Below, in pieces: positions 2,657-56,361 of a DNA stretch of 64,000 nucleotides (the first letter of the stretch is position 1; each line of letters begins with the position of its first letter). Source of the DNA: Moniliella sp. 'wahieum' (taxonomy: Eukaryota); the NCBI GenBank assembly GCA_003971905.1, contig RSEE01000065.1, positions 1-64,000 of the forward strand. Reading direction: 5' to 3'. Made by a program: the position numbers and the translations under genes. The notes beneath the pieces were generated by a model. That model searched no databases. It saw only the letters and a list, made by a program, of their open reading frames with translations, and was not told the DNA's origin.

Positions 2657-3861
2657 GGCTGACGATGGAGCGGAGAGAGCGCGGGATGGTGGTGAAGGAG
2701 GAAGAGGGAGGCCGGTGGCGTGCAGCGGCAACAACTATACGACAGCTGCTGCTGCTGGCGGCTGGCGGCTGGCTGCTGGCTCTGGTCGCCGGCTGCTGCC
2801 GGCGGCACACTTGCGTTGTCCGCATACTGCCCCCCTGCGCTGTTTCTAATACGCCGTGCGGCACCCTGGTGGCGGGAAGAAGCGGGAGGCGCATCGGCCT
2901 GCGCTGGTGTGCAGTGCATCCAGCGTGCGTCCGGGGTGCCTCGGGTGCGCCGCCTGGCTGCCCCCGTGCGCAACACAGCACACCTTCCCGCTGCCGTCCC
3001 CGCACTTCACTGAGACCACACAGCCCCCATGCCGTCGCACACGCAAACACGAGTGGGCCGCAGCCGCCACAGCAGGCACCCGAGATCTCGGCCTCCACGC
3101 TCACCGGTCACCCGTCGCCGGTCGCCGATCACCGATTACCGGGTACCGACGGCACAACCAGCACCACCATCAACATGCACCACCATCAACTTTTGGACCA
3201 GCACACCCAGCATCCGCAAAGCCATCATTCAGTACTTTGCGCTGTTGGCTCGGAGGCTGGAGGAGGATTGGCTGGCACAGATCGCTGCACGCTTCCAATG
3301 CGGTCGACCGCCTAGACCGATGCCCACAAGCGCGCAACGCCAAAAAAGGCAGCGCGGCACACCGCTCCGTGTCAATCGATCGACGATCACTGAGCTGATC
3401 AGCATAATGTTTCTCCGCATAGCTGGGTGCCCGCACCAGTACTCAGGCATTAGGCCCTAGGATGGAAGTTGCTTCCTCTTTTCACTTTGGCAGTCTGGGG
3501 TCGACAGGCATTGAAGTCCGTGTGCTGCCGGCGCGTAGCCGCCTCGGCCCGGTGGGCTAGTAGCCCGCCGCGTGAAATGCAAACACAGATGGTGTCACGT
3601 GAAGTGGTCACGTGCCCCAGCGACAGCTCTCCTACAGTGCGGTGATTTGAAGTGCAAGAAAGGAGCAATGGTGCATGTTGGGACAAGCGAGCGCCTATGA
3701 ATATGACAAGACGCGAAGACCGTATTACAAGCGAGGTGGCGGCGACGTGAAGAGCCTGGGGAGGGCACGGACCATCGACCATCGATCATCCCCACACGGC
3801 ACACAGCACGAAGAGGGAGAAGTGTGTTTATGTAGGGACGCTCAGCAGAGCGGTTACCCAA

Positions 3862-4269
3862 ACCGCGGTGGTCTAACGGCAATGATGCATCTCTTCTACA
3901 TCCTCGGGGGAAGTGAAGATGGTGTGGGCGCTAGCGTTGGGCAAAATAGGCCTTCTGATGCCCACAGCTACCGGCTCCGGTCACCAGTTCAGTTCCCAGT
4001 GCGCACAAACATCATCTTCACGTCGATGGTGGGCGTAGTGCTTACACGAGTTCCATTGATGTTTCTTGATTGGTGGATCAATATACTGGATCGCATGCTA
4101 TAATGCGCACGGTACTCGGCTTTCCGAGTGCATGTATGCGACACTGTAGCATATCATCTTTGGCACACAGCACTGGGGGCTTTCTGTCGAGTGTCCAGAG
4201 AGTACCTGCACACACACCCAGGGAAGGGAAGATAAGATTGTGATCCGGGTTCGACTCCCGGTCGCGGTA
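3862..4269 (+). tRNA. tRNA-Arg(UCU) with a 335-nt intron (exons 3862-3898 and 4234-4269)
   Basis: Acceptor ACCGCGG/TCGCGGT+A73; D-arm GTCT-AACGGCAA-TGAT; anticodon arm CATCT-CT-TCT-A|A-AGATT; T-arm CCGGG-TTCGACT-CCCGG; TTTT terminator at 4273-4276. C32 can pair with the antepenultimate intron base G4231. Confidence 0.88.
3899..4233 (+). ncRNA. Highly structured tRNA intron, candidate independent ncRNA of unknown family
   Basis: Multiple long helices found by eye (3913-3925/4009-4021; 4025-4031/4152-4158; 4092-4098/4134-4140; 4114-4119/4124-4129) and an 11-bp complementarity between 3991-4001 and 4171-4181. Confidence 0.6.
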
Positions 4270-5199
4270 TACTTTTACTGCTCATGCTGAAGGGCGTGCC
4301 GTTATGTCACGGCCCTCACGATAAACCTCACAGGTAACTCTTCTAGGCCTCTCAACCGCATCATCGCGTCTCTTAACCGATGTTGCTTCCGTGTGATTGT
4401 GTCAGTGTGTCTTTTGAGGGTCCCTTTTGGAACGTGGGATCACCAACAGTCACCCTCATCTCGCTTTTCTCTTGTGCATACTCCTCATATGGCCAATCAG
4501 CGCTGGGAAGAACCTTTTTAGGAGGTTCCGGTGGTTCTCTGATGCGCGCCGTCCCTGTACAATACTTCGTTTCTGAGGCCAGACCATGTCCTCTCCTCCT
4601 GTATTTACCCCCCGCAAACTGCTGCAATGGAAGCCGCGATGAAGAGCTTTGAGCCTAACCTCCAGCCCGTCCATAGATGTATCAAATCCATCTGCCCCCT
4701 TCCTTTCATGGCATGTTTCCTGGCAGACTCCGAACGAGATTGGAAGGCACCGAGGGAGGCGAGGGATTCAAACTGTGGCTCAGCCCGGTCCTTGGCTGCA
4801 AGCACAACCTCACGCACATTGTGAAACACTACGACACCACGTACAACACATGCTAAGGCTCGTAGACGCGGTCCTTGTCTCGTTTGCTACGATCGTTTCG
4901 CCCCGGATACCAAACAACTGCTTCTGTTTCATTTGTCTTTCCCCCGACTCCAAGAGGAAAGTACCGCAAATACGCCAACATTACTTCTAGCTGCCCGCCA
5001 CGGGCATATAAGAATGGGTGGAACCACTGTTTCATAGACTGAGAGAATGGTGAATAGCAAGATGAAGGGGCCCGGATGAAGAATCGAAAAGCAAGGCAAA
5101 AAGCATAGGACGAGTGAAACAAAGACATGAGCAGGGGTAAAATCGGTAGCCGAGGAAACGGGGTGATGAAGCCGCTGTAATGGGCACCATTGCCCGCCA

Positions 5200-13361: not shown

Positions 13362-16300
13362 TCACCACTTGCGCTTAGCCGCCGCCTTTTTCTTCGGTCG
13401 CCGTTCGTCCTCCGAGTCGTCTCCATGTTCTCGACGGTGTCGGTCGTCGGCTTTGGCCGCCTTGCGTTCCAAGGCATCCCAGTCCTCGCCTTCGTCCGAC
13501 TCGTCGTCAAAGGACGCTGAGCCCGAATCATCCGATGCGTCTTCATCAAAGTCCGACTCGGATCCAGCGGTGGACTCGTCGTCCGATCCCATGTCCCCGC
13601 CCATTGCTTCCGAAAAGTCCGACTCTTGCTCCGACTCGGAGGAGGCGTCTTCGTCGTCCGAGCTGCCCTGCAAGAACCCCCAGCCACCGACACGGAAGAA
13701 TTCCGCCGGATCGTCCTGTACCGTCTTCATGATCGCGGTCCAGTTGAGGTTGACCTGTCCGACCGAGATGGGGATGTCGACGGAATCGAGCCACTCCTTG
13801 ATGCTGTCCAGCTGTTGGCTGGGGATCGAGTTGAGGTGAACCACAGGCTTGGAGTAGTCCTTCATTACAAACACCAAATCAAAGTTCTTCAGACCATACT
13901 GCACGCGTTCCAGGTGAGCAATCTCCACCTCGGCCAAGGTAAGGACAAAAAAGGGGGGTTCAGAAAGATGGACCAGGGCGTCCATAGTCGGCGCAACCAA
14001 CACCGAGCTGCGGAAGGGAACCGCATTGAACGCTAGCTCGCGGAACGGAATGTCCATCTCCAGCCGTCCGCGGCTGGCATCAGCAATCTTTTGGGTAAAC
14101 GCCTTGAACTCCTTGTTAAGTTGGTGACGGTGCCTCCGTTCCTCGTTTTCCAGCTCAATCTCATCGTCGTCACCGGTGCGCTTGCGTTTTCGGTTCCCGG
14201 TCTCGTCAAACTGCACATCGCTCGCCTCTCGGAAGAACTGAATATCGCGGGCCTCTTCTTACCGACCATGATGGGATGCTTCAAGTGCACATGCACCAGC
14301 ACAATCAGCTCATGGTCGGTCGGTTGGCTGGAAGAAGAGGTGCTTGATGTTGCTAAACAGCAAATCCACCTTCTGGTGGAGCGGCGAGGTAAACCGGAGG
14401 CCGTTTTGGTGGATCTCCAGGTCCCCGGGTACCCGTTTGCCCTCCAATGCTGGGCGTGGGAACACCTCGCGAAGCACTGGTGGGCGCTGTTTGTTGAGAA
14501 TCAGTTTCTCCTGCTCCACCACGTCGGCCAACTCCTTCTTTTCCGCCTCACGCTTGGTCGCTGCCTTCTTAAATTCGGTGATCTCCTTGTAAAGCTCAGC
14601 GAAATGATACGCATCTTGGCTGCGGAAAGTCATGTTGCGAACAAACGTCGCATCTGGGTCTTCAAACGGCTGGTCCTCCTTCTTGCCCAAGATCTGTCCC
14701 GGGGAGATAAAGTTGAAGCGGAGGTAAGTCCACTCTCCCTCGTCAGATTTGGACAGGTTCTTGAGGGTATGGATATGGAACGGCACGGCAAAGCCATAGA
14801 TGGGGATGATGATGGACGAGGCGCGCTGGTCGAGGAAGATCTTCAGGTCCTTAGCCCGCGAAGGAACCACGTGGTCCCCCTTGTAGCTCTCAAACCGCTT
14901 CCACACCTGACCTCTCGACTTGCTCTCCCCCCCATCGTCGTTGTCAAAGCGAGCGAGGCCCTCCTCTTGCTTCTGCCGAGCGAGCTCCTTCTGGTGCTCC
15001 TTGATGCGATTGTCCACACTTTCCTCTTGGTTGGTGGTGCGGTTGGAACTGCGTAGGCGTCGCCCGCCAAACGACTCGAGAAGCGCATCATCCGCCTTGG
15101 CTTTCGGTTTGGGCTTGGGTTTCTCCTCCTCGCTCTTTTCTTGGAAGAAGGAAAGGTCCGAGGTGGACTTGACCGCCGTTGTCAGGAAAGACGCAGGTGC
15201 ATTTGCATTGACCCTCACAGTGTCGATGAGGAGAAGAGCGTAGGTCTTGCCCGGGTGGTTGGGGTCGGGGATGTTCTCCACCCCAAGGCTGACATCAAAA
15301 ATCATGTCCTTCTTGATTTTCCGCTCGTTGCGTGGTGAAAGGGAAAGGCAGAGTCGCGGAATTCCAGGCCAGTGGCAAACCCAATCGACTTTGTCAGGTA
15401 GGAAGCAAGGTCGGGGTCCTTGGACTGAAGAAATTCGACTGCCTGGTTGTAAACCTGTTTGCCCGTCACGCCCTCGCGAAGGAAGTCCGAAGCGACCTTT
15501 TGTTGCGTCTCGAGGAGGAGCGAATAGGCAGCTGATTGCTTCTCGTGAGGGTCAACCAGATAGGTACGCCCCACATTGGAGCAATAGGAGCGGTAGCGAA
15601 TTCCCACCTCGGCAATGATCACACTGCCCCCTCCGTCGGCACCCTCGAGACGTTTGTTGTTGCTCTGGGCCGAGCTACGCAGGTCGTACTCGCCGCCACT
15701 CATGATGATGGGGGTGTAGCACAAGTCAGCATAAGACGGGTCCAGATCAGGCAAGACAGCCTTCTGCTTGCGCCAAAAGCTATTGTCGTCCAGCTTGTTC
15801 TCAATATTGATAGCCAACTTTTCGTGGGAGACCTTGCGTCCATCATCAAGAACGTTGGACATCTCATCCACCAAGTAGTCCTTGAGCAGTGCTGTCGACA
15901 TCTTGGCCGCAATACGGGTGAACTTGATTTCCTCCTCGTCTTTGGCGGCCCAGATGGCGCTGAAGGCAGGACCAACATCGAGGGATACCCACTTGTTGGT
16001 ATCAATTGCCTTGCCCCAGACTGAGCCCCACTCTTCGGCAAACTTGCCTACCACTTTGTCCTTGGAAAAGATCCCCACCTGGCCCGAAGTGGCATCCTTG
16101 ACCTGAGCAAAGAGGGCATCCCAGCCTGCCTTGTTCACTGCTTCGTCCTTACTCCGCTTGATAATCTCGACGGCAACACCCTCCTGGTTCTTGGCCAGCG
16201 GCTCGAGAAGTTGAGCTGTGCGAATGTCAGAGTCAGCCTTGAACAGGTCGCAAGAGGGGGTTAGAGAGGGGGCTTACCCTTGGCAGATGAAGTGACAAAT

Positions 16301-16690
16301 GTAACCTTCTGTTTGGTGAGGAGGATGACGGTCGAAGGAAACTCGTATCCCAGGAGCCAAACCTGCAATGGCGCAAGGGAGAAAGGGGGGTCATCAGGGC
16401 ATGCTCATGGTAAGGAGAGGAGAGGAGGACATACGTGGAGAGCCACCGTCTTGCTGTACGGCATATCGTCATTCTGGGCGCCCATGGGCACTACCACTGC
16501 ACCTGTCTCGGATAGCGGCTGGAGGGCAGGATCCTTGCTGGGCGCCTGTGGCGAGACAAGGCGGGGAGGGTCAGCAACAAGACGGAACGCGAGGACGGGG
16601 GCGGGGAGGAAGACGCACCGCCCATGCAGCCTGGATGGCGGCCGCGCGTCGGCCAAACGCGGCAACGTCAATTGTGACCTTGTCCGACAT
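13362..16690 (-). CDS. SPT16: FACT complex subunit Spt16
   Basis: Aminopeptidase-like N domain ([26 protein letters not shown]), [37 protein letters not shown], and an acidic C-terminus ([16 protein letters not shown]). Three 5' introns and internal frameshifts. Confidence 0.96.
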
Positions 16691-55766: not shown

Positions 55767-56290
55767 AGGTTGGGACGGAGGGTAGGAGGGAGTAGGATAC
55801 GACGTGCACCCCTTGCCATGCGGCAACGACGAGGAGATCGTGGCCCACCCCTCTGTGCCGCTCCGAGTGTTTCTCTTGCATCTGTTTCCCATGGTCCTTT
55901 CTTTTCCGTAGGTATCTTTTGCTCCACGGCCCTTTCCCCCGCCTCCCGCCATGTTTCGCTTTCCTCCCTCTTCCATCTGCCCTACCCGCCTTTCCTCCCC
56001 CGTCTCGAGGTGAACTTTTTTTTTGTCTATTGTTTGGTGCTGGAACGCCGACAAGCTGCTTCCCCCATCCGCCATTGATCTACATACACCATTTCCTCAG
56101 GTCCTCTTCAGCTGCGAGCTGCACAGGTGGAGTGGCGGAGAGACGGTTGTAGGTGGCAGCTGGTGAGATGCAGACAACGTGCTATAACGCGCACTGGATT
56201 CGATTGCTCACATGGGGATCGCAGTGACTAGTGACTAGTGAGGACGATCGAATGGGCCGTCAGCGCGTCAGTACAGTTCCAAAAGTAAAG

Positions 56291-56361
56291 TGGACGAACA
56301 GGGAATTGAACCCGGACCTCATGCATGCTAAGCAAGCGCTCTACCCCTGAGCTATCCGCCC
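56291..56361 (-). tRNA. tRNA-Ala(AGC), intronless
   Basis: GGGCGGA TA GCTC AGGGGTA GAGC G CTTGC TT AGC AT GCATG AGGTC CGGG TTCAATT CCCTG TTCGTCC A. G3:U70 Ala identity pair, followed by a T-run. The variable loop/T-stem looks one base short. Confidence 0.92.

Follow-up and report, generated by a model that had tools for sequence, protein, structure and literature searches.

A duplicated inner 3' splice site in a 335-nt tRNA-Arg(UCU) intron suggests expansion from 17 nt by a single insertion

We describe here a tRNA-Arg(UCU) gene with a 335-nt intron, which is of a known kind and a marginal length record among the published cases found. What is new is a duplicated, apparently hidden inner 3' splice site, suggesting from its sequence that the intron went from 17 to 335 nt by one insertion. 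The gene lies in a window of 64,000 nt, the whole stretch of DNA that was analysed. For very long tRNA introns, the 318-nt cases of yeast come with a hypothesis on why they are long, and none on how in the accessible text of the source (PMC5951914). In the gene described here the footprint of a one-step route, a splice-site duplication at insertion, seems to be preserved. That a nuclear tRNA-Arg(UCU) gene is working and at the same time had its intron expanded in one step from 17 nt, by an insertion that duplicated the splice site, is a combined claim to which we give slightly better than an even chance. Taken by itself, the claim that the gene works appears likely from its sequence features, and the insertion route, provided that the gene works, seems probable to a similar degree.

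The gene is made up of two exons followed by a candidate terminator:
3862..3898, plus strand: 5' exon of tRNA-Arg(UCU), nt 1-37, with the A box in the D arm, C20, the anticodon at 3895-3897 and A37
4234..4269, plus strand: 3' exon of tRNA-Arg(UCU), nt 38-73, with the B box at about 4248-4258 and the discriminator A73
4273..4276, plus strand: TTTT, candidate Pol III terminator, the first 4-T run downstream of the gene start

The exon coordinates of a preliminary description of this DNA were correct, and the acceptor stem fully paired with one G-U and the anticodon stem paired at 4/5 positions, both reported there, were re-derived from the sequence. In silico joining and scoring of the exons had been suggested as a check: 3862-3898 joined to 4234-4269 gives a 73-nt tRNA that ARAGORN reads as Arg(TCT) with a score of 113.1, slightly above the 111.6 of the intronless tRNA-Ala of the window. 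The acceptor stem (3862-3868 with 4262-4268) is paired at 7/7 positions and begins with A1-U72, the T stem is paired at 5/5 and the D stem at 3/4 positions (U13/U22 unpaired), and the unpaired position of the anticodon stem is C27/U43. The anticodon TCT occupies 3895-3897 and A37 is found at 3898; U33, A37 and A38 are intact, as are all 19 stem pairs and 15 invariant positions examined. The features of a type 2 Pol III gene are present, with an A box, a B box and a downstream oligo-T, and without internal oligo-T. The terminator is merely four T long, resembling the TTT-AC-TTTT that follows the tRNA-Ala. C35, U36 and C20 agree with the yeast-type arginine identity determinants, described as C35 and U or G at position 36, with C20 or U20 tolerated (PMC4742068). 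A first pair A1-U72, here 3862 with 4268, is otherwise said to characterise initiator tRNA-Met (PMC8450103).

Between the exons, the following elements define the intron and its splice geometry:
3899..4233, plus strand: intron of 335 nt at the canonical position 37/38, with no run of four or more T inside
4217..4224, plus strand: 3' strand of the intron-closing helix, pairing with 3901-3908 at 7 of 8 positions (34/3000 shuffles as good)
4226..4242, plus strand: distal copy of a direct repeat, with the anticodon-intron strand 4227-4231, the bulge 4232-4234, the 3' splice site 4233/4234 and nt 38-46

An interruption directly after nt 37, a pair between C32 and the antepenultimate G of the intron, and a 3-nt bulge at the 3' splice site had been claimed, and all of these could be confirmed. 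The intron spans 3899-4233, the anticodon-intron helix joins 3893-3897 to 4227-4231 by four Watson-Crick pairs and U36-G, and C32 (C3893) pairs with G4231, the antepenultimate intron base, leaving 4232-4234 as the bulge (predicted pair probability 0.82-0.91). The helix said to close the intron is present at 3901-3908/4217-4224 but imperfect, with 7/8 pairs, one of them G-U, and a C3905/A4220 mismatch. The comparison drawn earlier with canonical substrates of the TSEN/Sen endonuclease also stands, as the geometry matches the description in PMC10275265; the bulge-helix-loop of TSEN substrates is likewise described in PMC6614914. In position, C32:G pair, bulge and mature domain the interruption is, as far as sequence goes, a canonical Sen/TSEN intron. 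Following the known pathway, Pol III would transcribe a precursor of about 410 nt, in which the exons would fold into the tRNA body and the intron would fold aside as hairpins. Sen/TSEN would then cut after A37 and at 4233/4234, where the geometry is seen, and Trl1 would ligate a 73-nt tRNA that, charged as the pathway predicts, would read AGA.

A strict scan for this canonical architecture returned one locus, the tRNA-Arg gene, in the real window and none in 1500 shuffled windows (0/1500), and the scan is conservative because it misses the real tRNA-Ala of the window. ARAGORN with long introns allowed is a weak discriminator alone: 3/25 shuffled windows gave matches with scores of 101.5-104.8, and the unspliced tRNA-Arg locus scored 105.9. 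The warning that default finders may miss the gene proved justified. Default ARAGORN overlooked it, ARAGORN with introns allowed miscalled it as Leu(AAG) with a 328-nt intron, and the Rfam search gave no tRNA match at the unspliced locus. The Leu(AAG) reading was dismissed, having a 9-nt loop, a non-canonical position and a lower score. A self-splicing group I intron or a spliceosomal intron is so improbable that it can practically be set aside. The pairing of 3893-3897 with 3909-3913 ends in U-G and is P1-like, and the length would fit a group I intron; however, a 7-nt anticodon loop is restored by one boundary only, at which the intron ends in T where a group I intron would have G, no group I or II match was found in Rfam at E up to 10, and the intron ends are CA...AT instead of the GT...AG of spliceosomal introns. 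Standard finders drop or mislabel long-intron tRNA genes, which calls for caution, and tRNAscan-SE is reported to have missed some tL(CAG)-Z genes (PMC5951914).

Absent from the earlier description of the gene and newly recognised here is an inner 3' splice site at 3915/3916. It belongs to the upstream part of the intron:
3908..3924, plus strand: proximal copy of the 17-nt direct repeat, equivalent to the final 8 nt of the intron and nt 38-46 of the tRNA, containing the inner 3' splice site
3899..3915, plus strand: putative ancestral 17-nt intron, ending at the inner 3' splice site 3915/3916
3925..4225, plus strand: unique sequence of 301 nt that separates the repeat copies, the putative insertion, with no homology found

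The segments 3908-3924 and 4226-4242 form a direct repeat with 14/17 identical positions and a spacing of 318 nt, as an insertion with target-site duplication would leave at its flanks. Because the distal copy spans the last eight intron bases and nt 38-46, the proximal copy amounts to a full second 3' splice site, which would define an intron of 17 nt. Pairing with the anticodon arm is even more complete for the proximal copy (10/10) than for the distal copy (9/10). A 14/17 repeat was attained in 1/3000 dinucleotide shuffles of the intron, a 10/10 splice site arose in 5000 intron shuffles at 1.4% anywhere and at 0.08% within the first ~30 nt, and a 9/10 site in 24% of intron shuffles, all of these being tests picked post hoc, once the repeat had been noticed. 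The three differences between the copies are two free bulge bases and nt 43, which is G43 in the proximal and U43 in the distal copy. The copies match also at positions whose identity is not dictated by pairing (-8, the G-U opposite U36, nt 38 and nt 44-46), which points to common descent. When the 318 nt are deleted and the proximal copy is kept, ARAGORN reports an Arg(TCT) gene (111.1) in which 17 nt of intron follow nt 37, whereas keeping the distal copy leads to a miscall as Gln (106.4). In the mature form, the tRNA with the distal copy scores 113.1 and that with the proximal copy 118.5.

We propose that an ordinary ancestor with a 17-nt intron received about 300 bp near nt 46, and that this insertion would have duplicated the 17 bp covering the 3' splice site and nt 38-46; the repeat is seen and its history would have to be read from it. 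The downstream copy would have recreated a splice site ahead of an intact T arm, so that the insert turned into intron, and the leftover inner site may be neutralised by pairing with intron sequence, as folding predicts. Introner-type spliceosomal introns arise by transposon insertion, with a target-site duplication supplying a splice site. The route proposed here is similar in that an insertion-born duplication recreates the splice site and the insert is spliced out, and unlike it in relying on the tRNA endonuclease machinery, in having no identified element and in concerning one locus. Since introns of tR(UCU) are conserved in both fungi and animals (PMC12168002), a short intron is expected in the ancestor.

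The insert is single-copy within the window. In Rfam nothing rose above noise (the top score, on the opposite strand, was 15.1 bits where 55 is the cut-off), and the insert has no phage match, no Pfam match in 8/8 reading frames tried, no internal tandem repeat and no poly(A). There is no terminal inverted repeat (499/500 shuffles as good) such as a MITE or DNA transposon would carry. Similarity to the upstream and downstream flanks, the exons or the tRNA-Ala was not found (best alignment matched in 28/500 shuffles), and these alignments rule out a tandem duplication of the whole tRNA gene. Scans of metagenome contigs and viral contigs with the exon pattern gave no match. The lone match among prokaryote genomes, in an alphaproteobacterial MAG (L001 1-1221, minus strand), was rejected as a chance 21-mer within a coding sequence that we take, by eye, to be Cas9-like. 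A working gene whose intron grew gradually, or under selection for slower maturation or anticodon nuclease evasion, with the inner repeat due to chance or convergence, is rather doubtful. Structured introns of 134-318 nt with such a proposed cause are published for yeast tL(CAG)-Z (PMC5951914), and gradual growth agrees with an insert that lacks terminal inverted repeat, poly(A) and homology. A repeat of this size anywhere in 441 nt is also unremarkable before its position is conditioned on. However, the repeat lies exactly at the expected end of a typical short intron and covers bases beyond the pairing region.

Three further elements lie within the intron:
3909..3996, plus strand: predicted long hairpin whose outer stem 3909-3928/3977-3996 buries the proximal site (z -3.4, 0/500 shuffles, boundaries set after folding)
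4010..4021, plus strand: second element complementary to the proximal copy, 12/12 pairs with 3913-3924, one G-U
4095..4152, plus strand: stable predicted internal hairpin (z -4.1, 0/500 shuffles, boundaries set after folding)

With the acceptor, D and T stems fixed, in a thermodynamic prediction that leaves tertiary contacts aside, the anticodon-intron pair probability is 0.90-0.91 for the distal and 0.00 for the proximal site at 25-37 C. The proximal copy is sequestered in the 3909-3928/3977-3996 hairpin with a probability of 0.88-0.95 in the folding model, and the complementarity of 4010-4021 covers the two bases that differ between the repeat copies. The best of the anti-site duplexes is equalled by 13/300 shuffles and the second best (-20.0 kcal/mol) by 0/300. 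The overall distal-minus-proximal energy gap is -3.4 kcal/mol, and 62/376 insert shuffles do as well. In the model, nascent RNA of 69-99 nt has its anticodon arm trapped in a slipped hairpin, which is replaced after 3996 has been transcribed. If the inner site is cut first in the model, the probability of the distal anticodon-intron pair drops to 0.004-0.023, and therefore an inner-first route looks like a dead end. Recursive splicing, first at the inner and then at the distal site, was modelled and is disfavoured by the same values. The gene is a natural substrate for studying how TSEN picks between two valid 3' sites.

Some of these observations would also suit a gene that the insertion disrupted and left dead or dying, its precursor cut at the inner site, misfolded or degraded and another gene supplying tRNA-Arg(UCU), a scenario that we consider unlikely but by no means negligible. 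A target-site duplication by itself accounts for the distal splice geometry, re-splicing at the distal site is improbable once the inner site has been cut in the model, and the slipped hairpin of the nascent RNA traps the anticodon arm. The distal copy is the poorer one, with 9/10 pairs and U43 unpaired, so that the C27/U43 mismatch sits in the distal stem; this counts against the preferred reading of a working gene. On the other side, 19/19 stem pairs and 15/15 invariant positions are intact although the repeat copies differ at 3/17 positions, two of them free bulge bases. Under neutral drift, all 19 stem pairs and 15 invariants would survive with a probability of 0.26, 0.068, 0.018 and 0.004 at 3, 6, 9 and 12% per site, where 9% corresponds to the 3/17 repeat differences split between the copies and is a point estimate from just three differences. 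Moreover, the closing helix and the hiding hairpin connect the old intron with the insert. The stretch of 408 nt without TTTT is a weak argument against a dead gene, since we estimate that it would occur by chance in about 40% of cases.

A dead gene would also be compatible with the rarity of the AGA codon. AGA accounts for 8/166 Arg codons across seven ORFs, some of them partly out of frame, and for 2/93 where Pfam domains match, the two occurrences falling in the weakest ORF; GUT2, the only gene that was aligned to homologs, uses it for none of its 43 Arg codons. As AGA is rare, selection on tRNA-Arg(UCU) may be weak. A low demand for AGA would make a slow precursor tolerable, yet it would weaken selection too. 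Among the 1424 Pfam-matched codons of the window, TTA (0), ATA (0) and CTA (1) are as rare as AGA, so that nothing marks AGA out, which argues against an intron lengthened gradually or under selection.

The intron had been called a passenger, a notion that is unsupported: Rfam, Pfam and phage searches gave no match, and folding of the whole intron is only modest (z -1.9, 3/100 shuffles as good), with 2/19 off-centre background windows reaching -1.8 and -2.0. It is probably tolerated cargo rather than a separate functional RNA. It seems quite improbable that the intron hosts an RNA with a function of its own, such as an H/ACA-like guide around 4095-4215, or that it regulates the supply of tRNA-Arg(UCU) as a two-site switch. 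The high local stability of two hairpins (z -3.4 and -4.1) and an ANANNA motif at 4151, after the 4095-4152 hairpin, fit an embedded RNA, and competing splice sites that are only 3-5 kcal/mol apart fit a switch. However, no Rfam family comes near threshold, the second hairpin that such a guide would need is not stable (z +0.7), ANANNA occurs six times in the intron and, by the snoRNA box consensus, a C box is missing. A precedent for nesting exists in archaeal tRNA-Trp introns, which harbour a box C/D RNA (PMC4090602). We would attach an equally small probability to two competing TSEN 3' sites in which the distal site yields working tRNA, the inner site leads to a dead-end RNA whose variable arm is 318 nt long, and the choice of fold sets the AGA-tRNA supply. 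If this two-site reading were true, an insertion would have given rise to alternative tRNA splicing, and this in an intron whose length exceeds that of the published cases found.

The closest known systems are the tL(CAG)-Z genes of Kluyveromyces, Eremothecium and Lachancea kluyveri, whose structured introns of 134-318 nt were called the longest known and for which a response to killer toxins has been suggested (Krassowski et al. 2018, PMC5951914). The gene described here shares with them the 37/38 position, a length of hundreds of nucleotides, predicted hairpins and the failure of gene finders (PMC5951914). It differs in being Arg(UCU) instead of Leu(CAG) and basidiomycete instead of Saccharomycotina, and it contains a duplicated inner 3' splice site, of which none is described for tL(CAG)-Z in the accessible part of PMC5951914. 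Codon reassignment, a further point of difference from tL(CAG)-Z, gave no sign here, where the one aligned gene, GUT2, contains no AGA codon that could show it. The exceptional size claimed for the intron stands in part: at 335 nt it exceeds the published maximum found, 318 nt, by about 5%, but the S. cerevisiae yardstick of 14-60 nt, a range correctly quoted (PMC10275265), overstates the case in view of the published 134-318 nt introns of yeast tL(CAG)-Z (PMC5951914). For yeast tRNA introns an interquartile range of 15-31 nt is given (PMC5951914), for canonical eukaryotic introns 6-133 nt (PMC4090602) or up to 133 nt (PMC10275265), and for metazoan introns about 40-250 nt (PMC4536317). Like ordinary fungal and animal tRNA-Arg(UCU), the gene is an intron-bearing isoacceptor with a bulge-helix-loop, C32 paired to the antepenultimate G and a 3-nt bulge (PMC12168002, PMC10275265, PMC10485636); unlike these, it has two candidate 3' sites and an intron roughly ten times as long as those in the yeast interquartile range. 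The intron is further comparable to the metazoan introns that yield tricRNAs, such as Drosophila CR31905 (Lu et al. 2015, PMC4536317), which are likewise canonical, structured and of unusual length. The structure of CR31905 is conserved and covarying (PMC4536317), whereas that of the present intron is predicted from a single sequence. Fungi, which are without RtcB, normally release linear tRNA introns (PMC6614914). On record-length tRNA introns, the literature searched, with few subscription papers and bioRxiv supplements, yielded only PMC5951914. Neither for target-site duplication as a source of introns nor for nested or recursive tRNA splicing was anything on the mechanism found in literature titles and abstract openings. 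An insect tRNA intron of more than 1 kb may exist, which could undo the length record. No such intron was found in the accessible part of PMC4536317.

Among the 19 ORFs of the window that were scanned, seven have Pfam matches, the encoded products including GUT2, SPT16, a Gar1/Naf1 protein and a family 14 polysaccharide lyase. One of these genes neighbours the tRNA gene:
548-2362 (about), minus strand: GUT2, glycerol-3-phosphate dehydrogenase, one open frame of ~600 codons

GUT2 is encoded on the opposite strand, and the tRNA-Arg(UCU) gene is found 1.5 kb upstream of it. The quality of the assembled sequence can be judged from this gene and from SPT16 (window 13362-16400, minus strand), which has a real-looking intron and is, besides, split into several ORFs by three or more frameshifts of a single base each, close to short repeats and homopolymers; these are most likely assembly errors. 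GUT2 aligns without frameshift over ~600 codons. Since SPT16 is affected and GUT2 is not, single bases here, including U43 and the exact intron length, may be errors. That the insert or the repeat itself was made by misassembly is very improbable. The frameshifts of SPT16 in the same window would be in line with such an artefact, but the repeat copies differ at three sites, the insert occurs once in the window, and frameshift-free GUT2 is only 1.5 kb off.

The GUT2 protein has 88-90% identity to its two closest proteins (P0001, P0002) and about 65% to those of Thecaphora, Tilletia and Ceraceosorus. In a quick tree built from this protein and 39 proteins hand-chosen among the 120 matches listed, it shares a long branch with these two closest proteins, within a group of support 95 together with Malassezia and smut-related entries. 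From this placement the host is therefore a Ustilaginomycotina-like basidiomycete. An EF-hand domain was found neither in this GUT2 nor listed for its two closest relatives, in which many smut-fungus homologs of 730-900 aa differ. The tRNA-Ala(AGC) of the window, intronless and located at 56290-56361 on the minus strand, has one unpaired T-stem position and a U-U pair in the anticodon stem. Upstream of the tRNA-Arg gene, two short arrays of 7-nt tandem repeats are found at window positions 3101-3142 and 3770-3790.
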